Below, piece by piece: positions 1 to 20,000 of a DNA stretch of 20,000 nt. Within the stretch, counting starts at the first letter, position 1; every line of letters begins with the position of its first letter. Source of the stretch: Psammoneis japonica (Eukaryota); the NCBI GenBank assembly GCA_008632985.1, contig QPGO01000296.1:51731-71730 (forward strand). Reading direction: 5' to 3'. The notes beneath the pieces are model-generated. The model saw nothing but the letters and a program-made list of their open reading frames with translations, did no database searches and had not been told where the DNA came from. The translations under genes and the position numbers were made by a program.

Positions 1-120
1 TCCGATGTTGGTTGGAGGTTCAAGCAGCAACAAATTAATGCAAGACAACCAACCTCTGCCATGGCACCAAATTGAAGCAACGGAGACTCTCTCCCGGGCA
101 CTTGCCAGCATGTTCATGCC

Positions 121-2400
121 TTGCACAAACAGAAATGGTTCCCTGGGCTTGACAAGAATGGTGAAATGCACACTGCTCATGGGGTTGGTCGTGCGAGCAT
201 CAAGAGCCACAAGCCACTTCAAGGTGCAGAGTTGAAGAAACACACGGCAACGTGTTTTCCCCATGGACATGTTCACTGTGTGCCCAATGTTGTTGAGCGA
301 GCTCTGAAACACAAAAAAGAAACAGCTGGCCAGCTGGCATCAACCGGAATGCAACAAGGTCAAAAACAGACCAACAAAAAGATGCAAAAGGCGGCAAAGG
401 AATTCGAGGTCCCTGCCAGTGCAAAAATTTCACTTGTCTTTCCTGATTTCTTGGACAGAGATGACACCTGAAACACTCAGTGTTTCAGGTGTGAGACAAA
501 CAAACTGGTGCTGTTGTTGGGGTCAAGACAATGTGCCCATTCTGCAAATCAAATGCTCATGTGGAGCACAAAGACAGGGCGGGATGCAAGGACAATGTGA
601 GGGCAACTGCAGGCCACAAGGAGAAAATCCCGCCAGTGGGGCCAATTGGATTGTGCAGCAATCAGACTTGTGGTGGACCAGTTGACAATTTGGAGAACCA
701 TGATTGCTGCTCGACGCACTCATTCACAGTCTGCAGTGAAGCCTGTTGGCAACAATGTCCAGAAGAGGTCAGGGAATGGTGTGACACCATTCTAAGAAAA
801 GACGCATCATCCGGAGAAAATGGACAAACTTTGGTGGCAGAGCAATTGTGTTGTGAAGTGCTGCATGACTCAACAATTTTAAAAAATCTGGCAGACAAGA
901 TGGAGGAAGTGCACCAACAGGCTGAGCGCAGGGCGATTGCAGCATGTGTGGCTTTCACTGAATCCCAAGGTGACCCCAACAGCTTGCCTGATTTTGGCAG
1001 TGATGATTGTGACAAGTTGTTTTGACCACCAAGTCACGACACATTTGGCAGTGTGTTTGATGCAGTGTTTGAGATTGTCTTGCCCTTTCTACATCAAGAC
1101 CTCTTCATGAGAACCCCAGGCTGATTTGTTCAATGGGACTCTGCTTTTGACTTTGCAAAGAAAGCAATGAATGACACAGAGTCAGAAGAGGAGTTTAAGA
1201 CAGTTGCCATTGTCTTTGGCGAGCATGGACACATTCTTTCTTGGGCATTTGCTCAAGCCAAGGGAAGCGTCATGTGCCAGCAACTGATGTGCTTCATCAA
1301 GAAGCTGTGAGCATCAAGGACAGATGGAAAATGAAGGCAACCACTGCATGAATGAAGTTGAGCATGGACACAGTGATGTCTGCTGTGAAGGACTTGTTGA
1401 TGCATGGGAACATTGGTTCCTCAAGCTGTGGCCAAAAGCGAAGGTGCCACCAATGAAAGATTTGTGGCATGGGGAAAAAAGGTCACAGACGGCACTTGCG
1501 GAACTTCTCACAAGCTTCGTGTGTCATTCACAAAGGGGCTGGCCCAAGCCTGCCTTGCACATGATGAAGATTCAAAGTGCTCAGTTGTCAAAAAGTTCAA
1601 GGAGGATGAAAATTGAAAGAGTGCACCAGGGGAAACAAGTCCATGTCGACCAAAGTGGCAATGTCGGCTGTGATGGATCAAAAGACGTTTGGGACAAAAG
1701 TGAAGAATTCTGTGCTGGAGCCCTCTGCAATGGCTGCCAATGTTCAAGATGCTTGTGAGAAAATTAAGGTGGAAGACAAGAGACTGTGACAAGAGGCCAA
1801 GGAATGAAGAGACGGACACTTGTCTTGCCTTTTGAAACCGTCGCCAAACGTGAGCCAAGGAACCGAGCTTGAGGTTCAGAATTTCATGCAGCACATTGAA
1901 AAAGGTTGTTTTGCCGACCCTCTTGGTGTTGATGACATTGACACAGAACTCTTGGATGATCCCCATCTGCACTGTGAACAACTGTGAGGAACTTCCCCAG
2001 GCAAAAGTGTGAACAAGTGTGTCAACAGACTTGCGGCGGACACCGCCATTCACGGAGCACCTCGAGTGCACAAGAGACTTTGGCTTTGAGCCACTTGGTT
2101 TGACATTGACAAAGACACCAAGCTGCATCACATTCTTGGAATAGAGAAACCACAAACTGTTGAGTGGTTCCTTCATGAGATGTTGTTGGGAAGGAAACCG
2201 AACCTCTCTGAGTGTTCTGGCACGGCATTCCCCCCAAAGCTTGAGCCTGATTGTGATGAGCCCGTGGGGATTGAGTTCTTGCCACACAAGCAATGGGACC
2301 GCATTGCAAATGATCTCAATGAATTGCAAGCAATCAACCTGTCTGAACAGCAGAAGTCATTGAAGGCAATGTGTGCATCTCAGCCTGCTGCCAGTTCATC
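121..2400 (+). pseudogene. Decayed DDE transposase-like gene with N-terminal Cys-rich region (resembles DUF6729-associated transposases); stops and frameshifts
   Basis: Motifs in expected order across frames: CPFC (~534), WDSAFDFAKK (~1134-1163), FGE[H=Y]GHILSWAF (~1215), [H=Y]SDVCC (~1369), KDLWH (DxxH, ~1456), HIEKGCFADP (~1892), [TGA=R]GTS (~1985). Family assigned from recalled motifs only; ends undefined. Confidence 0.55.
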
Positions 2401-3269
2401 TCCACCTGAGTCGCATCCAAACAATGGTTTGATGATGAGCGTTTCCCACTTGTCACAAGCTGAGTTGCCACAAGGTGAGCTTGCCCTGAATGCTGCTCAA
2501 CAGGAGTCAGCTGCGGTGCTGCCACTGGCTGCATTGCAACAGCATGTGTCGCAATCTGGAGTGGTGTCCCAGAATGTGCTGGCGGTGACTGCTTTGCTGC
2601 AGGCACCATCACGTGTTTTGCAACAACAAGTTCACAGGCATTGTTGTCTCAAGATCAGCAGGTAGCTGGGGTTGCAAAATGTGCTGATCATGGTCAGCTG
2701 CAAAGCATTTGGTCTCGAAATCTTTGTGCAATCAAATGGGTCTCTTTGCTGGACATCTGTCTCAACCCAAGGGAGCCTCTGACATTTTGTCAAGATCAAA
2801 TGTTTTTGCAGACATTGGTTTCTGCATCCAAAGTCACTAGCCTTGGTGAGGAGAAACTAAAAGCTGCAATTGCAGCTGCTTGGAGGGAACAATGCTGTTG
2901 ATTCTTTTCTGGCAATGGCACTGGCTTGGGAGGGCAAAATGTGACTAGAACATGTCACTGTTTTGTTGAAAGAGAAAGGCAATCGACTGCTTCAGATGCA
3001 ACCAGGGCTTTCAAACAGTCAGCAACCCATGATTTCTCACATGGGCAGGCCGCAGAAGCAAATTTGACGAGAAGATGTTAACAAACCATCGCACGCTCAG
3101 TTGGGGGATCTGTTGAGACAATTGCCGGGAAGGAGCATCCGGAGCACCAAACAAGCCCGTGTGGAAGAGTTGCAAAAAAGAGTTTTAGGGAAAGCCATGA
3201 GACTTCAATTTGACACTGTAGATGACACTGCATCAACATCTCTCTCTTCCTCTCTTCTTTCCCTTTTTT

Positions 3270-5240
3270 AAACTTCAGGGGCGCCAGAAGGGCACCCCCC
3301 TTTTAAACTTTGCATCCACAAAAATCCCCAGACAGGGAGCTGCAGGAGTGGGAGGAAAGAAGGGGCACGTGAAACAGCACTCAGGGCATTTGAGAGATGG
3401 AAGTGGAGCAGAAGGAAAGGGGAGGGAGGAGAGAAAGCAAAGGGTGTGGGAAGAAGAGTGATGGACAATGTTGCAACTGACAGTTTAGATGGCCCATTGG
3501 GAGGGGGGGAAGAGCGGTGGGAGCTGCCAAAGCAACCAGAGGAAAGCTGATTCCATGCACAATTGGCAGATGGGAGAAGAGCAGATGGGGAGGCAAGAGC
3601 GCAGGAGAAGGCATTGAAGGAAGCAGAGGAGTGTCACAGGAAGGAGGGGTTGAGCCAAGGGGGTTTGGGCTGGGAGCATGGGGAGGGAGAGGAGGTGCCA
3701 AAGAGGAGCCAGTGGAAGAAGCAGCCAACAAGACCACCCAGGTGATCAATGGTTGAGGGAAGCAGATGTGTTCCACTGGCACTGAGGAATTGGATGGCAA
3801 GAGAGCCATCAGAGGAAGAGGTTGAGGGGCCTCAAAACTTGGACCTTGCACTTGCACAGCGTGCCTCAGTCAAAAGAGAAGATGAGGGGGAGGCAGACCA
3901 GGTGGAGGGCGAGGGGGGGCTTTGGGGACAGTGACGTTGATGGCAATGTGTTGATGCTGAGAAGGAATGGCAAGGGAAGCAGGGGGAGGGATGGCAATTC
4001 CTGCATCAGCTGGACAGAGAATGGGCCAATGCAGCAGAAGGTTTGCAGGTTTGAGGTGGACGTAGGTGGAGGAATGACAGAGCTTGGACAGGGGGGGCAA
4101 GAGTTTGTGCAAGGATGAAAACAGTGTCCCGTGTGCCATTGGAGAGCTTGGACTTGTCATTGCACTTGCACATGAAGGTGTGGTCACCGCAGGCATCAAG
4201 GGAGGTGTGGCCACAGGGACAAGGAGAGTCAATGAGGGAGGAGGGAAGTGCTGGAAGATGCAGCTTGCGTTGGATGGCTGTGGTGCACTCATCAGAGGAG
4301 AGGCGGGAAGAGGCAAATCAGGAGGAGAGGTGGTGAAGCGGCAGGCTGGCAAGGGGCAATGGGAGGGAATGGAGAGCAACTTGGATGGCAGGAGGAGCAT
4401 CAGCAAGAGTGGCATGATGGTGTGTTGTTGGTGGGCATGATGAAGGTGGCAAGCAAGTCCAGGGAGCCTCATTGACTTGACCAAGGTGGGAAGATTTGGA
4501 GCAGCCAATGAGGAATCAGAAGAGAGCACAGAGGCAAAGCAGCGAAAGAGAGTGTGAAGGCACAGGTTGGAGTGGGAGTTGTTCCAGGAAGAGAGAGAGA
4601 GAGAGAGAGAGATGGAAGCAGTGCAGGAGCTCAAGGCTGTCCCCAGAAGGGAGCTGTGCACCGTGACAAGTGAAGCGGAAGGAGAGCAGAAGAGAGATGA
4701 GGAAGGAGGGGCTGGCGGCAGCAGCAGGAACACACAGGCCCAAGCCACACCAACGGAGGCAGGGAGAAAGGCAATGGCCAGGGAGTGGGGAGGTGGAGAA
4801 TCAGAGTGGGCAGAGGCGCAGTGAAGGAAGTGATGGATGAGGTCCAGAGGAATGGGTCAGGCGGGTTGTCAGGGTCAAAGTTGCAGTGGAAGTCGGTCCA
4901 AAGGAGGTGGGCAGAAGAAGGCACAAAGCAGTGTTTGAAAAGTTGAGCTTGAGTTTGCTTGTCACGTGGGCAAGGCAGGAGACCGTCAACCTCAGCAGAG
5001 AGGGAGGAAGAGACATCAGAGAGGAAGAGGAGTTTTGGCAAAAGCACAGGAGCCAAGAGGCTGTCCGAGGAAGTGGACAACCAGAAGTGAGCTCGGGGTT
5101 GTAGGAGGGGTCAACAGAAGGGTTCAGGAAGGCAAGAGCATTGCACAGGGAGGAGGCATTAGATTGGGAGAGAGAAGAAAGTGGGCTGGTGCCGCTGATG
5201 GAAATGAGGATCTTGTTGTCAGGGTGTCTTCATGGGCATG
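3270..5240 (-). mobile_element. 5'-truncated, degenerate CRE-like non-LTR retrotransposon (end of RT, CCHC knuckle, restriction-like endonuclease)
   Basis: Minus-strand translation gives FLGQPLGS (~5050-5075), LFKHCFVPSSAHLL, AIQRKL[H]LP (~4255-4280), CPCGHTSLDA[C=Y]GDHTFMCK...SNG.RD (~4125-4222), L[C=R]PADAGI...IAINVTVP (~3925-4020), LLPSTIDHLGGL (~3730-3765), PSQWAI (~3490). Boundaries approximate. Confidence 0.75.
4590..4611 (+). repeat. (AG)n microsatellite inside the LINE remnant
   Basis: About 11 AG units seen directly. Confidence 0.9.
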
Positions 5241-5390
5241 AGCACCCGGAACCAAGATGGCCCAAAAAGCCAAGCCAATTTTTGAGTTGACATGTGGCTA
5301 ATCTTCACCATGAAATCTGGGACGGTTTGCCACTTTCAAACAGATGACAAAGATGTAGCATGGTGGCTTTTGCAACAATGCAAATGAACA

Positions 5391-5667
5391 ATGCTTTGCT
5401 GGAGGCTGGTTTTGACAGTCTGGATGGCATGGCTGATGCCCTGCTTGATCATTCCGGTGGCTTCAAAGATGCAACGACAGGCTCTGCGAGAACTGGGCCT
5501 TGAAAATGGCTCTTTCACACAGCAAGAGCTCAAGAAAGCCTGCCGTGCACGAAGCCTTGAAACACATCCAGACAAGGGCGGCTCACACGAAGCCTTCATT
5601 TGTGTTGCCCTAGCTTGCAAATTGCTCTCTGGTTCAGGCACTCACAAGTTCCAAAGCAACGAGCGTC
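5391..5667 (+). pseudogene. J-domain (DnaJ/Hsp40-type) gene, 5' half, interrupted by Copia insertion
   Basis: Hydrophobic N-terminus, then ALRELGL...ELKKA[C=Y]RARSLETHPDKGGSHEAFI.VALA[C=Y]KLL with the HPD motif; frame runs into the TSD/LTR at 5663-5668. Confidence 0.85.
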
Positions 5668-6891
5668 TGTGGGAAAGTGGCCTGAATTCTGGGATTCGTC
5701 TGCACTTTCAGTGATTAAAAGCTGCAATTGCAATGCAACAATCAATCAGCAACTTTGCACCAAAAGTTGAGAGGTGACAATCGACACGTTAGAAAGACCA
5801 TGAGCAGTTTTTATGAGCAGATTCAGCTGCCATCTAAAAGAAACGCGAAGTTGGGCTTGGTCTGCAGGTGAACCAAGCCGGATCGGATCGCCGGATCGAC
5901 TCCTTCACAACCCATTAAAATGTTAGTCCATCGAGTCAAAAAAGTCGATCCGGGGCCTTTGTGGGACTGATCCGCCATCTCGGATCGGATGTCGTGTCGA
6001 ATTTGGAAGATTCCGTGCCGTCATCATGACAATGGCGCAACATCACCCGATTGTGACACAGGGCGGCATGAGATTCAGCCATGAGGGCACAGAACTTCCT
6101 CAGCATTGCAGCCTGAGTCTTTCCATGCTTGAAATGGAGATGAAAAGGTCGCGTGGCTGTGAAACAGCTTGTCAAACCGATGATGCCATAAAGATTTGTT
6201 GGAGAAACATTGAACAAGCAAAACAACAAGTGTTCATTGTGCAACTCGAAATTTCAATGCAAAAACATGGTGTCAGTTTCTCAACTGCAAAAGTGATGGC
6301 TTTTTCTTCCTTGTTGTTGGTGCAAACACTGAGTGACAATGATGCTCAATGATGTGGTCAAGCAAGCATGTAAAGCAGCAACAAAAGTGCAGTTCTGTCA
6401 TCATGTTGTCTTGTCATGACAAGATGTGAAGCATCATGGCCACACTTGTTGTTGTTCGCTTTGTCAGTGCTTTGTTGTTCTTGGGAGTTTGGAATCTTGA
6501 AACTTGTGTCATTTTGCGACTCATCAAAATGTCGAATCCGATCTGTGATCCAATCCGATTCCACCTGTCGACTGACAGAACTCTGACGTGATCCGATCCA
6601 TTGATCCGACCCGGCACGGTTCACCTGTAGACTGAGCCTTAGACACGCGCGAATCTGAGAACAAACATCGCATTCGTGACTCGGGTTCCGCGGGATTCGA
6701 GACTGAGTGTCACACACGGATTTGAATCATGGATCTGAATCAACCAATCAGGTTGAGTTTTCTTGATTCTGACTGCTGTTGCTTGTGGGGAGGAATTGCC
6801 CTTCATGCTCATCAATTCATGACCAAAGGACATGACTCGTGGAGGTTCGATGTTGTTGCACAAAACATGCAAATGTGGATGTGTTGTCACA
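5668..6891 (-). repeat. 3' LTR (436 bp net, interrupted by a MITE at 5854-6638)
   Basis: 5668-5853 plus 6642-6891 align to 12842-13267 with ~24 substitutions and 4 indels (manual alignment); starts TGTGGGAAAG, ends GTTGTCACA. Confidence 0.93.
5854..6638. mobile_element. Non-autonomous PIF/Harbinger-like MITE (785 bp) nested in the 3' LTR
   Basis: 36-bp imperfect TIRs 5854-5889 / 6603-6638 (GGCTtgGTCTgCAGGTGAACC.. vs GGCTcaGTCTaCAGGTGAACC..), flanks TTG (5851-5853) and TTA (6639-6641), subterminal GATCC/GGATC repeats; absent from the other LTR (empty site ~13028). Confidence 0.85.
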
Positions 6892-6899
6892 CTCCCTTC
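6892..6899 (-). other. Polypurine tract of the Copia element
   Basis: Minus strand reads GAAGGGAG immediately before the LTR start TGTGACAAC. Confidence 0.8.
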
Positions 6900-6934
6900 A
6901 ACAACATTGGGTGGAATGATGACTCAAAAACGTC

Positions 6935-8968
6935 TCACCACTTAAGAAGTGACTTCCTGTGCTTGACGAAGAGGTTTTGTGGCAGAGGTTTGGCGAAAAT
7001 GTCTGCAATCTGACTCGCCGCATCAATTGGTGGGATTGACATGAGACCCTTGCGAACATGATCTTTAAAGTGGTGGAGCATGAGGTTGAAGTGCTTTGTC
7101 CGAGGATGCATCTCAGGCAACCTGGCAATCTCCAGTGCTCCAGAATTGTCTTCAAATGCCTTGCAGTGCATGACAGGTGTCTTGGAAGGGACATTGTGAC
7201 CATGACTCATGAGTTCTTGAACAAGGTTCATGATCGGAATGGCACTGCGAAGACTTTCCAAAAGAGTGACAAATTCAGCCTCGGCAGTGCTGAGAGTGAT
7301 CAGGGTCTGCAGCTTGAATGTCCAGACAATGGGACATCCGGCACAAGCAATGACAAACCCAGTTCTTGATTTGGAAGTGCCGATGTCATCAGGTGCAGTC
7401 AGTTTGTTCCAATTGCCCGCGAAGTCCGCGTCAGCATGAACTTCAAGGGACTTGTCTGTTGAGGGCTGTGGAATGACACCTTCATTTCTGGTTTCGCAAA
7501 GGTGCTTGCAGAGCCACAGTGCGGCCTCACCATGAGAAACCTTGGGATCAGATGAAAAACGTGCGATCTGATGCACTGCGCAAGCGATGTCTGGGCGAGT
7601 GCTCTTCTCCAGAAAATTGAGCTTGCCGACAATGGAGCGGTGGTGAAAGCTCCCTTTGAAGCTTGGCTCACTCATGTGCCTGTGGAGAATCTTGGAGGAT
7701 GGAGCCGGTGTTGACTTGTTGGGTGCTCTTTCAGGTGAGTTCGCCATCTCCAGCATCTGATTGACAAGATGCGGTTGCACAAGTTTCATTCTGCCATCAG
7801 GCAGTGTTTCAACGTTGATGCCGAGACAATCATCCAGAGCACCCTGATCATCAACATCAAAATTTGCATCTCTGACATCTTGTGTGGCTTTGACAACTGC
7901 AGTGTTGTCTGGCAATGCAAAGATGCCATCATCCACACAACACACAAAAATCACATTGTCACGGTGACAGAGGCACTCGTCGACTGCCGATTGCATGAAG
8001 CCAATCCGCAGCAAGCCATCATGTGAGTGTTCTTGCCATGCCCTGCCTGCTTGTTTCTGTCCATGTAAATTCTTCAGCAATTTCAGAACATGAGTCTTGC
8101 CATTGCCACATTTTCTTTCAACTCCTGCAGGCAAATCCACACACATGTCATGTTCGGCATCAGCCTGTGGATGTGCCAATGCGAAGTCAACTTGGCGTGT
8201 GTGCCACTTCTTGAGGATGGCTGTGATCAACACAAGTCGGATGGTGAACCAGAAGACGATGGAAGAGCAGGTCTGGAAGCAGTTGACTGCATGCTCTTGC
8301 TTTCCACCATGCACATTGAGTCGGGACTTCCATTTGTAAATGGCACAAGTTTTGATGTCTCTCTTGCACTTCATTGACCATGTGGAGGGAAGAATGTCAA
8401 CATCATCAGGTGCGTCTTCACGTGGCATGAGTGCCCAATGCTTCTTCTCAACATGATCATTGACCTCTTTGATGCAGGCCTTGACAAACTCGTCTCGGTC
8501 AGGTTCGCACATGGCTTGATCAAAGCACACGAATGAAGCAGGTGAGTCCATGTTGTCCTGTAACTTGCAATCATCTTCATGCATGGCATCACAACACTCC
8601 TCTGCCTCTGCTGCACAGGAGACAATGCCTTGAGCCCTCTGGATCTGGCTTTCGCGCATCCTTTCGGTCGGGCGTCGTTGTTGGCTGGACCCACTGACAC
8701 TGGGCTGACCCATGGCATGCTGTGGCTCAGGAGGCAATTCGTCATCATCTGGAGGTACACACAGCTCCTCTTCTTCAGGTTGTGATGTGTCAGCATCAAA
8801 AGAGTCATCCACAGTGGGATCAGAATGCTGCAGCTGAGGTGGGACATCCGGACCCGGCTCAGGCAGTTCTGGTGGAGCAACAGGTTGCTCCCTTGTTCCT
8901 TTTGATCTCCCAAAGATGTTGAGTGACTGTTTGGTTTTGCTTGCTTGAAGCCTGTGATGCCTTGCCAT
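6935..8968 (-). pseudogene. pol: Copia pol: reverse transcriptase + RNase H (open frame, catalytic motif mutated)
   Basis: WSMKCKR...KWKSRLNVHG, QVDFALA, LLKNL[H]GQKQAG, V[CC]VDD, D[C]LGI, RPDIA[C]AV, [H]ADADFAG, SRTG, LSTAEAE, EDNSGA, RTKH, ADIFAKPL. Confidence 0.95.
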
Positions 8969-9000
8969 TGTGCAAATGTTGATGGATTGCCAGCAGAAGG

Positions 9001-9960
9001 TCAGACCGTCTCAAAAAAGTTGTCAAACTGTGCGTGGAACTGCGGCGATGCGAGTCCGGTTTGTAAATTCAAAACCAAGGCAACTGATCCTGCGTGTCTT
9101 GTTGAAGGTCCCAGATTGATTCCCAACCTTGCTCTTGGATCCCATTTAGGTGCTCCACCTCCTCCTTGCAACCAGTTGTGCAAAGCGTAGACTGGGCATC
9201 CAAAAGCATGGTGCTGCTTGAGGTCAGGCTGAACCTTGACCGACGTGAAACGTTCCAAAGGAGAGGAACCATCCTCATGGTCAGGCAAGTGGTTCCTGAT
9301 CTTGTTCGAGTTTCTTAAAGCGCTTGGCCACAAATTTGTCTCTGTTGCAGATGGCCATCTAACCTTTGCATGTAAGAGCTGTTTTCTTGCTTGCTCTTGC
9401 AGGTCCCATGTTCGTTTTTCCGTGATGCCATTTTGAAAGTGAGCATTGACGCCACAGTGCGAGATTGTCTGTTGTTGTTTCTCCACGTCTTGGATGAATG
9501 CATTGTCAGCAAATCTCCCGTTGTTGGCATGATGGTGTTTGATGCAAACATGGACTCGTCGTGCAAAAGCCTTGAAGGAATGTTTGGCCTCAAGTGTCTC
9601 GTCCGAGGTGAGTCCCCTCTGTGAGTGTGTGCATCCCAATCCGCTACAGTGATCAACAAATGTTGTTGCTGCTCAATGCCTTTGCTTCGCAGGTCTCCCT
9701 TTGAGTTGAGGGATCAGTCCAGGAGTCAGACTTTCAAGCTGGTCAACCGATGCAGCCTCTCCAGGCAAGGTTGCCAAGTGGATGTGTCTGTTCCACTTGG
9801 ACTTGGAGCACCATGGTCGTTTTGTCATGGCACCATGCAGGCAGCCGGCGCACTTTGGGTTGTGCACCTTTGTAAGGCGTCTCGGCAGGATGCCTGGGGT
9901 GGCCATGAGCTTGATCATTTTGAATGACATGTGGCCTGGGCGGTGATGCCAACACAACAA
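9001..9960 (-). pseudogene. pol: Copia pol: GAG-pre-integrase HHCC finger and integrase core, frameshifted
   Basis: WHHRPGH...CAGC, SVDQL, HHANNGRF (from YHADNGRF), HFQNGITEKR, LWP, FGCPVYAL, KWDPRARLGINLG, SPQFHAQFD. Confidence 0.92.
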
Positions 9961-10379
9961 TTCACCTTGGTTGTCAGCAGCGGCTAAGGCATCATCATCT
10001 GGTGTGATGTTGATGGGTTCCGGTGGGTCCTCCTGAACCTCCGGTGTCACAAGATCCATCAGGTTCTCCTCGTCAGAGTCAGAGCAACTCGCTTCATCAG
10101 TTGGCTTGAATGACTGAGGTGCACTCACATCAGTGTGGTTGTGTGCGTCTTGCATCTCGGAAGGACGTGTCTTGGAAGGACTTCTGAAGATGTCTTGTTC
10201 AATTGCAGTCTCAGCATCGTTTGCAATGCTTTCGTTGTCAGGTGGCATGACATGAGCCTGACAGGCCATGTGCTCAACATTTTCGATGTGAGTCTGTTGT
10301 TCAACAGTGGCTGCAAAGGTCCGGCATTTGTTGGAACCAGGTGCGGAGTGCATCTTGGCGACATTGGAGTCATTGGACC

Positions 10380-10770
10380 ATGGAATCAAGCGATGGCACT
10401 TTCTCTGATCCCACACTGGCATGAGTCCATCGTCTCTAGTCCAGGACACGGTTCCGTGAGGCTCAGGTGTGTGGTTGCCGGCTTGTTGACTCCATTGTTG
10501 GGGGCAAAGGAGACAGTGAGGCAAGTCCAGTGCGAGCAGTGCATCTCGAATCTTGATGTTGTGCACTCATCCCATGTCATCCTCAATTGGCCACTGTGCT
10601 GTTCCTTCTCCCTTGGCAGGCAAACAACCTTTGACACCAAGCACCACCTCACTCATCTTTCAAACAGGACCAATGAAGTGTGTCTCGTTGTTCGACATGG
10701 TGCAGGAAGAGTGGGAGTCAACACCCATCATGAATGAGTCCGAGTTGCAAGTGGGTTGCATCTGCTGAGG
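10380..10770 (-). pseudogene. pol: Copia pol: aspartic protease region, frameshifted
   Basis: SDSFMMGVDSHSSCTMSN...FIG followed by CLLCPQQWSQQ, at the expected position between gag and integrase. Confidence 0.7.
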
Positions 10771-11168
10771 ACGGCATGGAGTGGTGGCACTGCAAGCGGA
10801 GACCATCTTGTAGCGCACAAGGACGTAGTGAGCCTTCTTGTTGGCCACACTCTGGAGCAGTGACCTGGCTGCGTTGACGTGTGATGCTGTGCGCAGCACC
10901 TCGTCGTTGGCCGTTGCTGGCAAGTCTGAACTGGTGGTGTGCTCATGTCAACTGGGATGTGTGAAAGAATCCACTCACCCAGTGTCATCACAGCATCACA
11001 CAGCAACTTACACTGGCTTGAAGGAAGGGACAGCATCACGAATGAGAGGATGACCCAAATCGGGGCCGCAAACTTCATGACGCCAGAGACTGATGTCAGG
11101 AGCAGTGACGCAACAGCGGCCATCTGTGGGGACAGGAGGAGCGTCATCAGAGCTGATTTGATGGCTGG

Positions 11169-12771
11169 TCACTCTTGATCCACTTCGTTTGGAATGGCAG
11201 AAATGGCACTAGCGAAGGCGACCTTCTTGTCGGATGTCTCGTTGGAGGATGAAAGTTGTTGCTTGCGGAGTCTGCACCCAAACTTTCCCGGATCATCAGG
11301 CAAATGAATGACCCAAGCCATGTGGCAAGTGCACCAGTGACAGTTGCAATTGTTGACATGCTTGTGAAAGTGCTGATGTCCATTGACTGTCTTCTTAGGT
11401 GCACCATCCTCAGGCGGAACTTTCTTCCAGGCTTCATCAGCCTTCCACTTCTGGCGTGGAGCAGTCTTGGTCTTCCTTGACTTTGTGCTTCTCTCCTTTC
11501 CTGAACCTGCCTTGGCCTTCAGAGCCTTGGACAGCTGAAGGTTCTGGTCCTTGATTGAGCCCACCTCAGCAGTGAGTGCAACGATCTGCTCTTCAGCTGG
11601 TGAGAGTGCTCCCCACTTCTCATCTTGCTTGAGGTTAGTGTGCTTGTTGAGCACCAGTGACATGATTTGTGTTGGCATGAAATTCTCACCATTGTTGCAC
11701 CTGTCCTTGTGTGGGGTGATGCATTTGACAAATGCTTCGTCAGCAGCAGCGGCGCATCCTTTAAAAAGATTCACAATGAGGTCGTCGCACTGCTCGCCCC
11801 TTGCTGGCAGCCCATCAACGTTGAGCTTGGCACACTTGTTGAACTCTTCCATGTCCAAGTTGACAGCTGCCATGTGTGCATCCAGGCTTGAAAGGTTCTC
11901 ACAGAAGTGGTTCGTGGTTGAACGGGTGTCGACGACAGCTTTCTGAGTGAGCAGCTTGAAGAACAGTGTGCCAATTTGGTTTCCATTGATCGTGCACAAA
12001 TCAATCTCATCAAGTGTCCTGTCCCTTGCTTCTTCTGTCAAGGACTGAGAGATGGCTTCAGCCATTTGCACATTGTTCTGTGCTTGCCATGTTGGAAGAT
12101 CGGCAAAAGTGGTGGCATGAGCTCTCACGTCCTGAAGAGCAAGCAATCCACACTCGGAAATAAGATCTCAAGGAGCTCCATTCATGTCGGGAATGGCAAG
12201 CATGTCTCCTGTCCCTGTTTTCCATCCTGCTTTGGCAGCTCGTTGACTGAGCATCTCACAAAAGCGTTTGAGCCCTTCAGAGTCTCCGTTAAACTCGTGT
12301 GGCAGTGGACAAGTGGCAGCGTTCTCCAGAGCTTTGGGCCTTGCGACATGCCGCAGTCAATGAAATCATTGGGGCGGCGTTGACCTGGGGTCAAAGCAAA
12401 GATTGGCAGTGGACAAACTGGCAGAGCACTGCCTGGTCCTCCTGGTGGTGGAGCACCACCTCCTCCACCTGGTGGAGGAGCGCCACCTCCTCCTCTCCAG
12501 GTGCAACTGCTGGGTTGACAGGAGGGTTCACCGGAGCAGCTGGAGGAATGATGGGAGGCACAGCAGCAGCTGGAGTGGCTGCAGATGGAGCAGCTGCTGC
12601 AGGAGCAGCAGCAGGAGGAGCTGCTGGAGCAGGAGCAGCAGCAACAGCAGAAGCTGCAGGAGCAGGTGCAGCAGCAGGGGCTGCAGCAGCGGCAGCTGCC
12701 GGAGCAGCAGCTGGAGCCGGAACTGGTGCGGCAGCAGCTTGGGTGGTCGCAGTTCGTGTCTGTACGACCAT
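11169..12771 (-). pseudogene. gag: Copia gag, frameshifted, with Ala/Pro/Gly-rich N-terminus
   Basis: ATG at 12771 (MVVQTRTATTQAAAAP), FALTPG...FID[C=Y], GTLFFKLL...VDTRST, NLFKG[C=Y], WKKVPP...HWC..H..W..H knuckle-like motif; 325-aa ORF 11169-12146. Confidence 0.85.
12430..12740 (-). repeat. Low-complexity GCA/GCT/CCT-rich coding tract with a duplicated ~26-bp unit
   Basis: Poly-Ala/Pro tract; CCTGGTGGwGGAGCrCCACCTCCTCC at ~12441 and ~12468. Confidence 0.8.
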
Positions 12772-12841
12772 TGCAGGGATTAAAGCACAATCGAACAGTG
12801 GAGTCGATTTCACTTGTCTTGCAGTTTTCGCAGAGGAAGCG

Positions 12842-13267
12842 TGTGGGAAAGTGGCCGGAATTCTGGGATTCGTCTGCACTTTCGGTGGTTAAAAGCTGCA
12901 GTTGCAATGCAACAATCAATCAGCAACTTTATTGCACCAAAAGTTGAGAGGTGATAATCGATACGTTAGAAAGATTATGAGCAGTTTTTATGAGCAGATG
13001 CAGCTGCCATCTCAAAGAAACGCGAAGATAGACACGCGCGAATCATCTGAGAATAAACATCGCATTCGTGACTCGGGTTCCGCGGGATTCGAGACTGAGC
13101 ATCGAACACACGGATTCGAATCATGGATCTGAATCAACCAATCAGATTGAGTTTTCTTGATTCTGACTGCTGTCACTTGTGGGGAGGAATTGCCCTTCAC
13201 ACTCATCAATTCATGACCAAAGGACGTAACTCGTGGAGGTTCGATGTTGTTGTATAAAACATGCACA
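12842..13267 (-). repeat. 5' LTR (426 bp)
   Basis: TGTGGGAAAG...ATGCACA followed by TSD GCGTC; lacks 18 bp present near the outer-equivalent end of the other LTR. Confidence 0.93.
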
Positions 13268-13680
13268 GCGTCATCACGATCGTACAAGTCGAGATCGTGA
13301 TAATCAAGAGCAACGTGGAGAACGACAAGAGAGGCAACAATGGCAACAACAAAAGCAGAATAATGAGGAATGTTCGAAGAAGCAGCAGGCATGCTCTTTG
13401 ATGACATGTTTGAAGACTTTTTTCCGGAAACTATGCTGACGTTTTCCTGGACAAGATCTTTCCACAAAAAAACTTGACGCGAAACCACGGGTTTGCCAAA
13501 TGCTGTCTTCGCTGGGCTGTTGATCGCCTTACAGACAAGGCTTTGTGTCTGTTGGAAGAAAGCGAAGTGTCCATTCACATTGATGGCCGCACCTGCTTTT
13601 CAGCATCTAGTTTTAGAGAGTGGCGAGACCGCGTTCGTCAGAGGAGACAGAAAAAGCAACAGCATCATTCTGAATTCTAG
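13268..13680 (+). pseudogene. J-domain gene, 3' half
   Basis: Removing the element and one TSD gives in-frame ..SNER|HHDRTSRDRDNQEQ..; after apparent frameshifts it reads MFEEAAGMLFDDMFEDFF..NYADVFLDKIFP..RQRRQKK, stop at 13680. Confidence 0.65.
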
Positions 13681-14622
13681 AATAATGCTACAACATTGTC
13701 AGCAAATGACGAAGAGTGCATGCATCCCACCATGATGGCCCGCATTGTTGTTTCTCCAATGTTTGTGCAGTTGAAAATGTAGCGTTTGTCGAGAGCACCT
13801 GGCGAACTTCCATTTGTCGACTAGTCCGGTTTGCGATGGACAGCCGGAAAGCCAGTAAAACAGGGTGAATGGGTTATCAGCAGCAAGACCAAACTAGTCA
13901 CCCATGTGTTTCGAAACGGGGAATGCTCACGCTTCAAAAACAAAGCGGTAGCCTGGTCCTGTGTTCAGGGACAACACGGATGCATCATCTTCCTTGACCT
14001 TGGTGTGGAGTAAGGATTGTCCAAAGCATATGTTGGCGGACCAATTTTGAAAGGAAAGCTGTCGACTGAACAACGTTAATCTCGCCGCATCATACACTGC
14101 AAATAATAGAGGTCTAACTTACTACGTGCAACCATTGCTGTCAATAGTGCTCCGAGTAGAGCTCACTTCCTTGACTGGCGAATGCATTTAGACCAGCAGG
14201 ATTGACGAAACGAACAAACGACACAACGACTCGAAGAATTATTGTCGGTTGACTGACGAAGCCGACCATACCGGAAGCCATACAAGGCCCAACGTCATTT
14301 TCTTACCAGAAGACCCGCGTGCAAAAACCTCTTTTGTGCCAGCCAAGAAACTCACGAAGCCCTCGCGGCTAGGCACAACTCGAGGTCTCCTAGGAACGGA
14401 GACGGAAGGAATTGCATGTGGTGGATGGATAGATTCGAGCAAATAAAGTAGCAAACGGAAAGACGATTCAAAACAAAGTTTTTGTGCGAAATGGTAAATT
14501 GTGGCAGCATGGCAAGCAGCATAATACATTCAGCACTAGCAGCAATGAACATCTAGAATAATTATGTTGAGTCATACAACCAAAGTTTACTGTTTTCGAA
14601 AAACGAAGCTACAGCGACTATT

Positions 14623-15637
14623 TCACATTCCTGGAACAAATCGATCAGGTCGCTTTCGTTTTCTTCCGGTGTTCCTGTAGCTAAACAGATCTGGCTTTTC
14701 ACAAAGCAAGGAGTAAACAATGCCCACTCTGGACATGTCTGTATTACGCCCCCCACTTTGGCCAAGACATGTGCCCAGAGAGCTGGATTAACAGTGTCCT
14801 GTTTCAAAAGTTGTCGCCCATGCGCTTCGATCACGGCTTCATGACCCTCATCGACAGCGGCGTCCAGCGGTGTTTCTCCATCCACATCTTTTGCGTCAAT
14901 GTCAGCTCCGCGTTCCAACAGGAGTCTCGCCATGCTTTCGCTACCTGACGTGCCTGCTGCATCATGCAAATTTGTAAGCCCCACCTTGTCAATCTCGATG
15001 ACTCGCGCCCCTCCATTCTCCAAGAGAACTCGCGCTGTGTTTTCCCTTCCGGCACTTGAAGCAAAATGAAGAGCTGTGCCACCCACTGTGATTGACTTCA
15101 AATCTACGTCGGCACCATTCTGCAGTAGTAAAAAACACACACAATCGTGCCCATAATACGAAGCTAAATGAAACGGCGTCAAACCACCGTTTCCAGCTTT
15201 GTCATTGACTGCCGCGCCGTGCGACAGAAGCACACGAGCTGTGGATGCACGCCCGCGAAGGCACGCCAAGTGCAAGAGTGTTACTCCAAGTGACCGATCC
15301 ATCACGCGTGCTCCAGCATCCAGCAGGAGTTGCACTTTGCATCGCGATTGCTTACAGCCGCAGAACCGACAACATCAAAAAGGATGGGGCTTGGACCACC
15401 ACCATTCATTCGGTTCACAAGCATGTTCGGATCGGCGCCGCGCAAAAGTGCACGTCGAACTGTGCTGCCGTCACCCAAAACGTTTGATTCTAGGATTTGA
15501 TCCAAATCCATGTCTAAAGTGACACGTTGTGATGAGAAGTGAATGGAATGGAGCCGCCGTCGACCCTGTGCTGCTTGTTGCTCTTTGCTCACGGCTGACG
15601 CCGCTGCCAGCGCTGCGACGCTGTTGTCACTTGTCAC
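14623..15637 (-). pseudogene. Ankyrin-repeat protein gene with two apparent frameshifts (pseudogene or indel errors)
   Basis: GVTLLHLAC..LLSHGAAVN, GLTPFHLAS..LLQNGADVD, GGTALHFAS, GLTNLHDAA..LLERGADIDAKDVDGETPL. N-terminal LLRGADPN lies in another frame (shift ~15335); tail VYSLLCEKPDL..RKRKR lies in another frame after a C6 run (~14750). Confidence 0.85.
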
Positions 15638-15669
15638 GCTAGCTCCGTGTGCGTTTTGGTTGTTCGAGG

Positions 15670-16513
15670 CACAGGCTCAGATACACTACTAGGCAGGACA
15701 GTAGAAAATCAACATTTACAATAATTAAGAAATTTTTATATTTAGCAAATGACGTGATTTTCAAGGATATACTTCCGGGTTTTTGGCGATTTCTGCCGGG
15801 TTCCTTTCTGTTTCGTGTACCGATTTTGGGTGTTTCACCACGGCGAAGCACGACGACAATGATGGTCGAAATACGCTGCAATGCAAGTGGGGCCGTCGAG
15901 CGCCGACCGTGGGAATCTCATTAAGTTGGTATTATAGCACACGTTTCAGGTGTCGGCGCTCGACGGCCCCACTTGCGTTATGATGAAATTATCGACGGCA
16001 TGTTGTCATGGTCGATTTTTTTTTATTCTGCCGCGCCGGGAAATCACAATCTCTCCGTAGGATTCTACGCTCTTTTTGTACGGAGCCTTCGACGACCGAC
16101 CTATCGTCATGTCGTTCGCAGACAGCGGCATAAAATAGAATGCATGCCTGGTCTGACAATTTATACATCCTCGTTGGGGCTGTCCACATTTCCCGATTGC
16201 AGCTCCACTGTGTTAAATTAGTGCAGAGCGATCGTATGGTTGCGACAACAAGAACCACAAGCAGCAACAGTAACACAAAAACGTTCTGATTTCTGAAACA
16301 AATTCGGTGGCGCTCATCATGTGCGCTCTGGTCGAAATTTCCAACGGAAGCTTCTCCGTAGATTTCTACCTGACTGGTGTCCGTTGGTTAAATTTAGTAT
16401 ATGAAACTGAAGGTCCTATTAGTTATGTTCATGTATAATAAGCATTTCAGATCCGTGCTTTCCAAGTAGTCGGAGTATACATTGTCCTGCCTAGTAGTAT
16501 ATCTGAGCCTGTG
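15670..16513. mobile_element. Non-autonomous TIR element (844 bp), 7-bp TSD, possibly P superfamily
   Basis: 31-bp TIRs 15670-15700 / 16483-16513 (CACAGGCTCAGATAyACTACTAGGCAGGACA, 30/31 identical); TTCGAGG at 15663-15669 and 16514-16520; no transposase ORF. Confidence 0.88.
15883..15976. repeat. Perfect 25-bp inverted repeat with 44-nt spacer
   Basis: GCAAGTGGGGCCGTCGAGCGCCGAC (15883-15907) is the exact reverse complement of 15952-15976. Confidence 0.95.
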
Positions 16514-19439
16514 TTCGAGGTTCGCGGCGTTCACTCCCGGCTTGGGAGGTCTGTAATTGCGCGGCGTTGTGCTGGGTGCGAAGTAGTCGAGTGAGTCGTC
16601 GCAACAAACCGACCAACAGAGCACAAGCGCCTCTGTCAAATTGTGCTTCAAACTGGAGCCCTTGCCGCACTCATCCCCACTTGCAGCACCCAGCACCCAG
16701 AGACATGACGCAGCATTGTTTTCTGTCATTCCAGAGCTGCAACAACATTTGTGAAAACCACCCACGGCTTCTTGGATTCAGCAGCTGCAGTGCTTTTGGC
16801 TGAACATTCTTCAGCAAGCGGGCCAGCGTGTGCTGCGCTCACATCTTCGCTGGAGTCAACATGTGCGCCCGCTTCTCCCGCCAACACAAGGGGAGCTTGT
16901 GCAATGCACTTTCCATCCAAATTTTTACCTTGCTCTTTAATGACACTGTTGAGTTGACTGAGTGATTTTGCATCTGAAATTTTGGGTGCTCGTTTGACTG
17001 CTGCTTCTTCTGCTGCTGTGCAGCTGTCGTCTGTCATTTGCGCCAGTGTCATGTTCTGACATGCACTTTGCAACCTTCACCAACAAAAGCTTGGCAAAAC
17101 TTTTGACATTGTGTGTTGTGCTGTTTTGGAGAGTGCAGCATGCAGGAAACAATGCCTTGCAATGGCTCATGATGTCTTTCTTGAGGCAAGTCTGACCTCA
17201 GTGCTGGGGGTGCAATTTGCAGCCATGAGAACAAACAACCACTTGTTGAGGGATGTGCTCATCAAGGGGTCAAAGGCAGAAATCAGTGTGGTTGCTCAGC
17301 CCAGATGTTGTTGCTGCCAAGATGCATCTGCAGCTTGAATCTTGCATCCTGGCAATTCGCGTCTCTGCAGATGCAGGCAAAATGATCAGTCATGGTTGAC
17401 ACAGTCGGCCGGACAAGAAGTGCATGTCTTTTCTCTTCTGTGGTGCACACTTTGTGTTGCAACCATGTCAGAGCATGTTGTTTGATTTTTTTGTTTTTCC
17501 TCTCAAACTTGGCCTGTCAAAGGGGTTGCCCGTGTTGATTGTCAACACTGGATTTTCATCTGTCTGCAAATGTTGGGTGAACCTTCCAATCATCTCGAAG
17601 GCACCAAGCTCCCTTCAGTTGCCACGTGCATGGGTGCATCACATCCTGTGCAAAGTCCCCCATGTCTGCGCGCTGGGTGCACCCTGCCTGACCACCCCAC
17701 AGCAGCTTGCAACTGCATGACAACATTGCTTCCGCCTTTCCATTGGTGTGGACCAAGGAACACCCAAAACATGTGTTGGCAGAAGAGTTCCCAGTGGAAA
17801 ACATTGACTGAGCAAGGACCATCTCACAATGGATGACTGTGACATGCTGAAATGGATCTCATGACCATGTCTGGTGCATGAAATTTGACCAATGGAGATT
17901 GGCATAACAAGCAAACTGCCAGCATTCCACTGCCCAATTGACTGGAGAACTTCTGACAAGAAACAGAAACAGACTGCCCCACACTGTGCTGCACTGCACT
18001 CACAGTGGGCCAACTCATCATGACAACCACCAAATGCCCACAAAAACTCTCAAAATCAAATCTGTTCTGATTGGCCTGATTTGAATGCTGATGCGATCTC
18101 CCTTCTTGATCTCTGGCACCTCGTGAAAGAAACACTTGAGTTGAGAACTTCTGCCTTTGACACATTCATTGGGGATCTCAGAAATGGGCCACTGGTTTTT
18201 GTTTAGAAACAGCAAACATCTGCAATCTCCGCTGGTTGCTGGGATGTTTCCAATCACAATGCACGGCATTGGATCATCAGCAAAAGAAGCTGTAGATGCC
18301 TCCAATGCAGAGCAGTCATTTGAATTTTCAAAAATGTGAAACAGCGGCTCCGATGCCTGGTCTCCCACTGCTCTGGCGAAAGACAAAGAATGGGATGTTT
18401 TGGCATCAAGACAATGTTGATCAATGTAGAGATCCAAAGAGAGCACAAGGAGGGGCAAGTTCTGAGTTGGAAGCTTGCAAAATGCCATGGGAAGGGCACC
18501 ATGTGACACCAGGTGGGACTCCTTGCTTCCATTGTTTCCCACTGAGATGCAGGAATTGTTTTTGAGGAACACAGCATCATTGGGTGAGCCACAGTCGACA
18601 GCATCTGAGTCATGTTCCCAGTCATTGAACAACAGTTTGCAGCAAATGCAACTGCTGACTTGCAATGGATGCACACCTTGCATTTCAACCTGCAAGTGCA
18701 CAGATTGTGCCTCTGACTTGACCCACCCTTTGTCTGGCTTAAAACTCGAGGCAATCCGGCCAAGCACAAGATGGTTTGCACCTTGGTCATTGCTGGATTC
18801 AATCATTGCCCCACCCTTTGCAAGCTTTGGGTCAAAGGTTGTGGGCAGAAAGTCAGTGTTGCTCTTGTGGCACAGTTCAAGGAATTTGGATGGATCCCCT
18901 CACAACTCTCCACAAGCACGGAAATTTGCGTGCCATGTTTGTTTGGCATTCTCACCTCCCCATGCTCTGTGCAAAGCATGTCACCCTTTCATGACGAGAC
19001 GACCTTGGCTGCGGAAGCAGTGCACTGCAGAAAATGACTTCCACCATGTTCATTTTCACTGATTTGGTGGTCTTCTTTGTTGCGTGGATCAAATGTGCCA
19101 CATCAGAGAATCGTGTGTGTCCAGTTGTTGTGTGGCTTGGCATTGTGATCATTCACTTTGAGTGCAAATCTGCACAACTTTGCAAGTTCGTCATGACACT
19201 TTTCTGCATGCCCAGAGCCAGGAGACAGAGTTTTGCCTGCAATGGCTGCTGGTCAAAAGAAGACAAGGTGAGTTCTGCTTTCTTGAACTTCCATTTCCCA
19301 TGGAATTGACTTTTCTTTAGATTTTGATTTCCACCATGATGTTCCCAGTTCCATCACTGTTGAGTGCCAGTGGCCGCAAATGAGGCACACTGATCAGACT
19401 GAAAGGTGACAAGCTCTTGACACAGCCCTGACTGCACGA

Positions 19440-19832
19440 GCCATGAGCAAACCTCTGGAACCAAGAAACAATCTGCTTCCACCTCCAATCAATGGGTTCT
19501 CACTTTGAATCTGCAATTTCTTGCAAAAACACCAAACCACATTGGAGATGAGAGAGCAAGTCACAAAAGGCCACGGGGTTGTGGCTCAGGCATGTGTGAT
19601 TTTCTTCATCCATGGGATTCAAGGGACTCCAAGCATCCTTGAGCATGCAGCAAATGGGTGAGCTCTCATCAAACTTTTCCAAGATGGATTTTGGGTTTGC
19701 GTGTTTGCCGCCAATGTTGAGATGCAAAATTGGAGCTTGGGGATGAGAATCTGCAGCAGCTTTTAGTTTCTTGTTCTTGGAGCTCAAAATGCTGCCAGCA
19801 GGCTCTCCTTCTCCTTTGCCCATCGGCACCAT
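19440..19832 (-). pseudogene. BTB/POZ (KCTD/T1-type) domain gene, hypermutated and frameshifted
   Basis: ILHLNIGGK..KSILEKF..MLKDAW..DEENHT[C]LSHNPVAF.DLLS[H]LQ[C]G, then in a shifted frame LEVEAD[C=Y]FLVP; probably continues below 19440. Confidence 0.7.
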
Positions 19833-20000
19833 GTCAGTGCAACATCAAATGTCAGCAGTGTCCTTCTGACTTCTGATTGCAGAGAAAGAACAGAGAAAGA
19901 GTGATGAGTGATGAGAGACCACTGCCAAAGCCACTCAGCATTGAACATTTGAAGGGAGTGGGGGGCGCATTTGCAGAAGTCAATTGTCAGCTGCTGCTGC

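Follow-up and report, generated by a model that had tools for sequence, protein, structure and literature searches.

The window analysed here is a stretch of 20,000 nucleotides of Psammoneis japonica DNA (contig QPGO01000296.1, positions 51,731 to 71,730 of the forward strand; coordinates below count from its first letter). It carries a Ty1/copia long terminal repeat (LTR) retrotransposon whose long open reading frames (ORFs) are nearly devoid of tyrosine, and the question that it raises is how tyrosine can vanish from an element while long frames stay open. A sequence-only reading had described the element as inactivated by recoding of Tyr to Cys or His. What is found is not recoding: the Tyr loss is the protein-level shadow of a DNA mutation of every TpA dinucleotide, coding or not, on both strands. 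This footprint of position-guided TpA hypermutation is real and strongly supported, and the Tyr loss is a consequence of the DNA process rather than a separate system.

Tyrosine loss and the depletion of TpA

The element is a dead copy spanning 5668-13267 between GCGTC duplications. Its integrase precedes a reverse transcriptase (RT) of the RVT_2 type, which places it in the Ty1/copia group, and it has the two LTRs and a duplication of 5 bp, within the 4-6 bp of that group. The Pfam domains (gag_pre-integrs, SH3_retrovirus below its cut-off, and RVT_2) are colinear with those of intact relatives, and rve has no Pfam match in the element or in the intact relative P0010. The RT/RNase H part scores 81 bits with the RVT_2 profile, above the cut-off of 31.6, where an intact relative reaches 146. 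An active member would have an open gag-pol with a YxDD motif, whereas here the motif reads CVDD, the integrase side of pol holds four in-frame TGA stops (10662, 10569, 9675 and 9003), and a frameshift separates it from the RT side.

Counted from the first start codon, the ORFs of 677, 212 and 325 amino acids contain one, one and no Tyr, as had been claimed, and the motifs LHG, CLGI, ACAV, HRS and HADAD all lie in the frame of CVDD on the minus strand. Over the aligned RT region Tyr makes up 0.18% of residues against a median of 3.9% in 120 RT relatives, a gap far too wide for chance, and at the 17 RT columns where these relatives have Tyr the element has Cys at seven, His at six, Phe at two, Leu at one and Tyr at one. 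The whole of pol gives the same picture: at the 20 columns with at least 70% Tyr among 173 relatives there are 8 Cys, 7 His, 1 Tyr and 4 other residues. Since every Tyr codon contains TA, a hit on the sense strand gives Cys and a hit on the other strand gives His, so the TAY to TGY/CAY direction that had been proposed stands. Across 412 conserved pol columns 82 differences were found, of which 34 are explained by a single TA change and 15 by a single CpG change; the rest are 17 transversions, 10 multi-step changes, 4 other C>T and only 2 A>G changes in other contexts. No product of a second-position A>G change occurs at any of the 109 conserved His, Gln, Asn, Lys, Asp or Glu columns. TA changes are not confined to Tyr codons and also replace a part of the Val, Leu, Ile, Thr, Met and Lys residues.

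In the RT of HIV-1 the corresponding Tyr is an active-site residue placed against the end of the primer (PMC1851649), so that loss of RT activity in the element is likely. The claim that the Tyr changes inactivated the element goes too far: they were likely sufficient to do so, but a single copy does not reveal whether Tyr loss came before or after the nonsense changes and the frameshift.

At the DNA level, 6935-12146 retains 23 TAs in 5.2 kb, an observed-to-expected ratio (o/e) of TpA of 0.07; the ratio is 0.06 for 1-3200 and 0.04 for 16650-20000, compared with 0.52 for 12900-16600. CA and TG are raised to 1.5-1.9 in 6935-12146, which matches the TpA loss. Across 77 related metagenome loci the TpA ratio is 0.35-0.94, and none has even a single 1-kb stretch below 0.2. 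TC/GA is not depleted (71.6 per kb against 70.8 in relatives), and the frequency of ApT does not stand out from that of relatives (z -1.2).

The same change bears on the open frames, although less than had been supposed. By enumeration, no sense codon becomes a stop through TA>TG or TA>CA, so the contrast with repeat-induced point mutation (RIP) drawn in the sequence-only reading holds. The removal of TAA and TAG holds for TAG, which is always lost, while TAA becomes either CAA or TGA, the latter still a stop. Accordingly, TAA and TAG together occur 2-3.5 times per 1000 triplets in the depleted blocks and 18.5 times in an island of less mutated DNA described below, TGA occurs 23-29 against 17 times, and all stops together 27-32 against 35 times. 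All six frames hold ORFs of at least 100 amino acids over 6935-12146, which agrees with the earlier description, and such ORFs are about 3-7 times as frequent as in base-shuffled DNA and near the level of a dinucleotide shuffle (observed, base shuffle and dinucleotide shuffle: left block 20, 6.1 and 18.6; element 14, 4.8 and 13.3; right block 12, 1.7 and 8.1). Against intact relatives, on the other hand, the excess is modest. Among 67 of the 77 loci (the 10 under 3 kb being excluded), 11 reach the 1.1 ORFs per kb found here, where intact relatives have 0.75; antisense stops occur 35 times in 1000 codons, the median of the loci being 45, and a value as low is found in 3 loci.

The impression of an intact element holds for the RT/RNase H frame, which is open over 638 codons, and fails elsewhere in pol because of the stops and the frameshift. 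The start of the 677-residue ORF is not genuine: relatives match its frame only from about 8860 downwards, and its Met at 8968 lies upstream of the frameshift. Since relatives read Arg at the TGA of 9003 (7/7 closest relatives) and at that of 9675 (14/54), both stops are likely CGA>TGA changes by CpG decay, and the same origin is plausible for those at 10662 and 10569. The TA changes themselves make no stops, those of the element copy probably coming from ordinary CpG decay.

The annotation trap that had been predicted is real for the unnamed DNA and for a broken BTB-family gene in the right part of the window. In the depleted DNA the six-frame Tyr content is about 0.1%. The RT is still recognised by Pfam, and the ESM Atlas gives RVT_2 clusters only for the RT. 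The BTB gene has no Pfam match, whereas 5 of its 6 relatives match, and in the ESM Atlas one of its ORFs scores 0.91 for BTB_2. Tyr-free, Cys/His-rich predicted proteins should therefore be flagged as relics, some of which, like the BTB gene, are missed by profile searches.

A codon reassignment, or a living family of elements that uses Cys and His at these places, would explain why the RT/RNase H frame is open at such length. It is contradicted by the loss of TA in non-coding DNA and in all frames, by an island ORF that uses Tyr codons, by replacements that split between two codon families as one-base changes predict, and by the four stops and the frameshift. Moreover, deeper contigs of other copies in a DNA sequencing run of the same sample (run X1) have Tyr at 8065 and 8109 (TAT codons), Val at 8040 and Leu at 7470; these copies keep Tyr, which excludes reassignment, and the idea retains practically no credit.

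A sequencing or assembly artefact deserves as little. The signature is extreme and the sequence was found in one study only, the runs listed being three from one sample with no RNA run among them. Nevertheless, seven contigs from run X1 reproduce the window with 0 differences at a depth of 31-35, although the window may itself have been assembled from X1, in which case the match checks the assembly and not the sample. The pattern is also block-wise around an untouched island, and it recurs in other records. The protein P0003 (NCBI, on a 47-kb contig, 61% identical), which may or may not share the organism, has Cys or His at 11/17 Tyr columns, and the Copia metagenome locus L069 (1-3592) at 7/17.

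Position and timing of the changes

The two LTRs, which are direct repeats of 92-96% identity (3' LTR against 12842-13265) and were identical at insertion, provide an internal comparison for the process. Their alignment has 27 differences. Seven TAs are kept only in the LTR that adjoins the island and none only in the other (p 0.016); three CpGs are likewise kept only in the island-side LTR, and three TG/CA swaps fit an ancestral TA or CG. The 3' LTR, with 5 TAs in its aligned part, is the more mutated twin. Because the twins mutate at different rates, dating by LTR pairs is unreliable in TpA-erased blocks.

A non-coding miniature inverted-repeat transposable element (MITE) has split the 3' LTR. 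It came later than the element, since an empty site was seen in a contig that joins 5850 to 6639 (summed depth 1698). It has also been mutated: of the two copies of its 3-bp duplication the left one is TTG and the right one TTA, and its two arms differ at TA steps as well.

These observations bear on the idea that the element's RNA underwent adenosine-to-inosine editing and that reverse transcription fixed the edits before the element inserted. The element is a retroelement and adenosine deaminases acting on RNA (ADARs) favour U before the edited A (10.64898/2026.01.13.699255), which would suit the context. Editing of genomic RNA, on the other hand, would yield Cys only and the Cys:His ratio is 8:7; the LTRs differ at TAs; and mutation has also reached two host-type genes and the MITE together with its target duplication. 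RNA editing is thus very improbable.

The host-type genes are a DnaJ-like gene, which the element interrupts, and the BTB-family gene. The first is just under the Pfam cut-off (DnaJ, E 1e-5), and two of its J-domain Tyr, conserved in solved J-domains, read Cys; its frame stays open for 56 Gln/Arg-rich codons past the right duplication (13268-13440), and its two halves have TA o/e of 0.06 and 0.31. In the second, 11 of the 17 positions opposite a Tyr of the best relative are Cys or His and none is Tyr. At E up to 0.001 it has 11 relatives, and a Proboscia alata protein belongs to one of the clusters among them. Between the two lies the island of ordinary TpA and CpG, whose ankyrin-repeat ORF still contains Tyr. 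Taken together, the LTR twins, the MITE, the host-type genes and the contrast with the island indicate that the target is a chromosomal domain and not a coding frame, an RNA or a repeat pair.

The process could be real and yet a by-product, that is, a housekeeping activity or unrepaired TA damage in closed chromatin where selection is off. The question is independent of the chemistry, so that its odds overlap those of the chemical explanations. Host-type pseudogenes are hit as hard as the element, the mutation follows position, and a young element with terminal inverted repeats (TIRs) in the island is almost untouched. In the chlorarachniophyte Bigelowiella natans, in contrast, a comparable process runs at about 1000 times the background rate, on foreign DNA only and in 11 of 15 lines, which suggests regulation (10.64898/2026.01.13.699255). 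A by-product is judged less likely than not.

The loss of CpG in the same DNA suggests a further route, in which mismatch repair of deaminated 5-methylcytosine (5mC) leaves gaps that an error-prone polymerase, like pol eta, fills while introducing A>G errors at the WA motifs of methylated repeats. TA and CG losses are correlated along the window (Spearman 0.68 for 40 bins; 0.38 for the 31 depleted ones), A>C/G changes at WA motifs linked to pol eta/theta are known (PMC8656811), and diatom transposons are CpG-methylated (PMC2806351, PMC9998398). WA includes AA, yet none of 31 conserved Asn and Lys columns shows the second-position change and A>G in an AA context accounts for 1 of the 82 differences. 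TA is, moreover, nearly gone where CpG is mostly kept, as in the MITE (0.09 against 0.77), the inner 3' LTR (0.0 against 0.88) and, less extremely, L069 (0.35 against 0.94). As AA is spared, the pol eta route is the weaker one, and it has a small chance of being correct.

Candidate mechanisms and known systems

The order in which TAs were lost offers a fingerprint of the agent. In the three depleted blocks 57 TAs are left, 33 of them in the context YTAR, whose share in relatives is 18%. A two-strand survival model gives relative loss rates of 3.65 for TAT, 1.59 for TAC, 0.77 for TAG and 0.51 for TAA (p 1e-16 against a single rate); read from T, the same order is ATA>GTA>CTA≥TTA. That the mutation acts at the DNA level, on both strands, after insertion, at TpA only, in the order TAT>TAC>TAG≥TAA and with a strength set by position and not by repeat status, is held with high confidence. 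The fingerprint is a basis for accepting or rejecting candidate enzymes. As a separate observation, survivors on the plus strand of the depleted blocks are unequal between RTAR and YTAY (19:4; 37:30 in the island), an imbalance that strand-biased composition may explain.

In the explanation preferred here, a DnaJ-like gene in a genome of diatom type received a Ty1/copia element, which afterwards lay in a block of silent chromatin. There a host process converted A:T to G:C, almost only at TpA and on both strands, until about 90% of TAs were lost. The mutator may be an adenine deaminase of the TadA/ADAT fold brought to silenced chromatin (probability about 0.55), which would turn the A of TA into inosine that replication reads as G. 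The engineered TadA-8e in the base editor ABE8e makes guide-independent DNA edits with T at -1 and T over C at +1, a TAT motif (PMC11983105), and the window likewise has an obligatory 5' T and a preferred 3' pyrimidine. TadA-8e thus shares the A>G change in DNA, the strong -1 T and the +1 preference, and differs in being laboratory-evolved (PMC11983105). The process might further serve as a defence, irreversible in kind, in which missense load kills the elements.

Several points weigh against this explanation. TpA is palindromic, so the sequence alone cannot tell whether A or T was attacked. No deaminase with an HxE-PCxxC signature was found in Pfam scans within the window. The TAT match is to an engineered enzyme, and the natural DNA-active amphioxus enzyme BjADAT2 prefers GAA (PMC10354150), which counts against a plain ADAT2. 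The fingerprint is drawn from 57 TAs only: TAT>TAC>TAG was recovered in 150 of 150 resamples, while TAG>TAA was recovered in 85% of them, and the rate of TAT is poorly bounded from above. Its baseline consists of elements of other organisms, the island baseline giving similar rates. The other copies are less plainly ancestral than a simple account would have it: 40 differences of run X1, chosen by support from 902, include 23 of the kinds G>A and C>T, and a TA is restored by 18 of the 23 (39-43% expected), whereas all 902 are nearly symmetric in kind (G>A 179, C>T 173, A>G 152, T>C 151). These copies therefore carry changes of their own and are not simply ancestors. A role in defence is also weakened by the mutation of host-type genes and by the persistence of TA-bearing copies in deep contigs.

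Since the order can be read from T as well, and 5-hydroxymethyluracil (5hmU) occurs on dinoflagellate transposons, oxidation of the T of TpA is a live rival and the main one. A TET/JBP-type enzyme would form 5hmU and then 5-formyluracil as a mark on transposons, and T would change to C. 5-formyluracil mispairs with G, and the footprint would in form be the same as that of A>G at TA. In dinoflagellates 5hmU is the product of TET/JBP enzymes and overlaps 5mC on repeats, and older work reports that T is replaced preferentially in TA and TC (PMC11572971). The last point also speaks against this rival, because TC/GA is undepleted in the window despite the 5hmU reported on TC (PMC11572971). No report of 5hmU in diatom DNA was found in the literature, for which no specific search was made, nor, among the matches listed, one of TpA-depleted dinoflagellate repeats. 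Thymine oxidation is accordingly regarded as improbable, if ahead of the polymerase route.

The closest known process is that of Bigelowiella natans (Mettrop et al., 10.64898/2026.01.13.699255), in which de novo TpA>TpG/CpA changes arise in integrated DNA of nucleocytoplasmic large DNA viruses (NCLDV) as well as of virophages. There, TpA-depleted coding sequences are enriched for RT and DDE domains, the enzyme is not identified and ADAT2 is proposed (10.64898/2026.01.13.699255). The main text of the preprint does not mention diatoms, trinucleotides, context, tyrosine, stop codons or, in its accessible text, thymine oxidation. Common to both are A:T>G:C changes only at TpA, on both strands, at the DNA level and in silent or foreign blocks. 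The window has 34 TA-type changes against 2 other A>G, and action on both strands of DNA is evident from the Cys:His ratio, the LTR twins and the MITE ends. Its blocks lie far beyond the cut-offs of 0.43 and 1.52 used in the preprint (10.64898/2026.01.13.699255). Viral origin of the targets was not found here, the identified ones being an LTR element, a MITE and host-type genes. With three of four testable features shared, the process works like that of B. natans, and it is not RIP. The two differ in host (stramenopile of diatom type, not rhizarian), in targets (including a multicopy LTR element), in depth (o/e 0.04-0.09 against 0.45), in a measurable +1 base preference and in the overlaid CpG decay. 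The B. natans mutation was observed as it happened, whereas that of the window is known from its footprint alone.

RIP of ascomycetes resembles the process in consisting of dinucleotide-specific transitions in transposon DNA that affect both strands, spill over to neighbours and are irreversible. RIP hits both copies of a duplication. This expectation is not matched by the 7:0 split of the LTR twins. RIP changes C to T at CpA and creates TpA (PMC2621366), hence stop codons, while the process of the window removes TpA and makes none. RIP was therefore rejected, as TpA is lost, CpA gained and GC about 0.50 with no AT enrichment, although diatoms encode DNMT4 relatives of RID (PMC9998398). N6-methyladenine (6mA) at ApT, deposited by AMT1, was rejected as well, since ApT is in the range of relatives and His, Asn and Asp columns are kept; this mark is found on genes rather than transposons (PMC12695648).

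How widely the process occurs can be judged only in part. The Tyr columns of 8 of the 77 metagenome loci were analysed, and L069 has 11 TA-type differences and 1 of CpG type, while 7 control loci have no Cys or His at Tyr columns. Among 135 further proteins 18 of 1137 Tyr-column cells are Cys or His, and only P0246 has several (4/8). The short, low-Tyr RT relatives P0171, P0253, P0232 and P0155 were considered as hypermutated and rejected, since they keep Tyr or Phe at Tyr columns. Collections of relatives favour intact, high-copy elements, so these counts are not a frequency. The six matches that carry species names among 240 listed RT relatives are all diatoms. A further run (X2), whose kind is a guess and from which nothing is drawn, holds related copies without the window's alleles at the listed places.

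Tentatively, and with the odds somewhat against it, diatoms and chlorarachniophytes may share a natural, chromatin-guided DNA adenine editor of the TadA/ADAT fold that turns TAY into TGY in silent chromatin until missense load has killed transposons, captured genes and integrated viruses. With the same reserve, it may be patchy across the SAR lineages (the window, P0003 and partly L069). If true, it would be a eukaryotic genome defence chemically opposite to RIP, from which adenine base editors for DNA might be drawn; a deaminase of this kind with a TAT preference would be of interest to base editing in itself. Whatever the enzyme, targeted A:T>G:C hypermutation of chromosomal DNA is extended from one alga, described in a preprint, to a second SAR lineage and to transposons. 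Among the literature matches listed, which leave out subscription journals and bioRxiv supplements, no report of TpA loss or Tyr-depleted ORFs in diatoms was found, only the Bigelowiella preprint; the accessible text of a diatom transposon preprint (10.1101/2025.10.24.684338) names neither TpA, hypermutation, dinucleotides nor RIP.

Features of the window

Table 1. Features of the window, in order of position (o/e, observed-to-expected ratio; a dot marks features without a strand)
Feature	Position	Strand	Remarks
Left TpA-erased block, content without identified family	1..5387	.	TA o/e 0.06-0.07, CG o/e 0.18-0.32
DnaJ-like host-type gene, 5' part, interrupted by the element	5388..5667	+	TA o/e 0.06
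Left target-site duplication GCGTC, 5 bp	5663..5667	.	Identical 5 bases at 13268-13272
3' LTR, split by the MITE	5668..6891	-	LTR DNA is 5668-5850 and about 6642-6891
Non-coding MITE inside the 3' LTR	5851..6641	.	TIRs 5854-5898 and 6594-6638; TA o/e 0.09, CG o/e 0.77
Polypurine-tract-like stretch upstream of the 3' LTR	6892..6899	-	Read straight from the sequence
RT and RNase H part of pol	6935..8851	-	1 Tyr; stop-free over 8851-6938
RT catalytic motif CVDD	7928..7939	-	Tyr in 117/120 relatives
Frameshift, integrase side against RT side of pol	8860..8947	-	Frame switch in tblastn of intact relatives
N-terminal pol frame: gag_pre-integrase zinc finger, integrase, SH3-like	8947..10857	-	Four in-frame TGA
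Gag-like ORF	11169..12167	-	0 Tyr; between TGA stops 12170 and 11171
5' LTR adjoining the gene island	12842..13267	-	Less mutated twin; 12 TA, TA o/e 0.36, CG o/e 1.05
Right target-site duplication GCGTC	13268..13272	.	
Island of ordinary TpA and CpG	13701..16513	.	Ankyrin-repeat ORF and young TIR element
Ankyrin-repeat ORF in the island	14562-15374		3 Tyr, TA o/e 0.43
Young TIR element in the island, 840 bp	about 15661-16522		TA o/e 0.82 (15670-16513); 31-bp arms, 97% complementary
Right TpA-erased block	16701..20000	.	TA o/e 0.04; holds the BTB-family gene
Broken BTB-family host-type gene	about 18075-19784	-	BTB_2-containing family

The inner end of the 3' LTR was placed from the sequence that adjoins the purine tract. 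Up to the tract this LTR (6874-6891) is longer by about 18 bp than its twin, the 5' LTR, is up to its duplication (13256-13272), and the 5' LTR may be clipped at its outer end. No TGG start of a primer-binding site was seen by eye after the 5' LTR. The gag-like ORF has no Pfam match and no tblastn match to relatives, and its placement between the 5' LTR and pol suggests that it is gag. Just inside the 5' LTR lies an Ala/Pro-rich repeat ORF (12391-12888, minus strand) that is probably the start of gag. ORFs of poly-Cys, poly-Gln and poly-Ala are other frames of this repeat and thus derive from it, not from TA loss. The copy shares with the CoDi Ty1/copia elements of diatoms (PMC2806351) the copia domain order, TG...CA LTRs, a 5-bp duplication and diatoms as nearest named relatives, and is itself a broken, hypermutated relic.

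The left block (1..5387) contains long ORFs without Pfam match. Its part at 3250-5250 has a strong purine skew and, near 4200 on the minus strand, a motif like a Cys/His knuckle, again without Pfam match; by eye, this part resembles a relic of a non-LTR retroelement. In the window, 35 further ORFs have no Pfam match at E<=0.01, four weak matches (E 0.02-0.07) on two island ORFs were treated as chance, and no tRNA genes were found. A scan of viral contigs gave two pattern matches and no relative. Members of the BTB_2 family are about 600-700 amino acids long and have a conserved C-terminal region without Pfam match.

The young TIR element of the island is flanked by a direct repeat of 7-9 bp, and its arms differ by one TA>CA change. 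They start with GGCTCAG, as does the MITE at 5854. Inside this element, at 15880-15979, there is an inverted repeat of 28 bp with 96% complementarity and a spacing of 44 bp.

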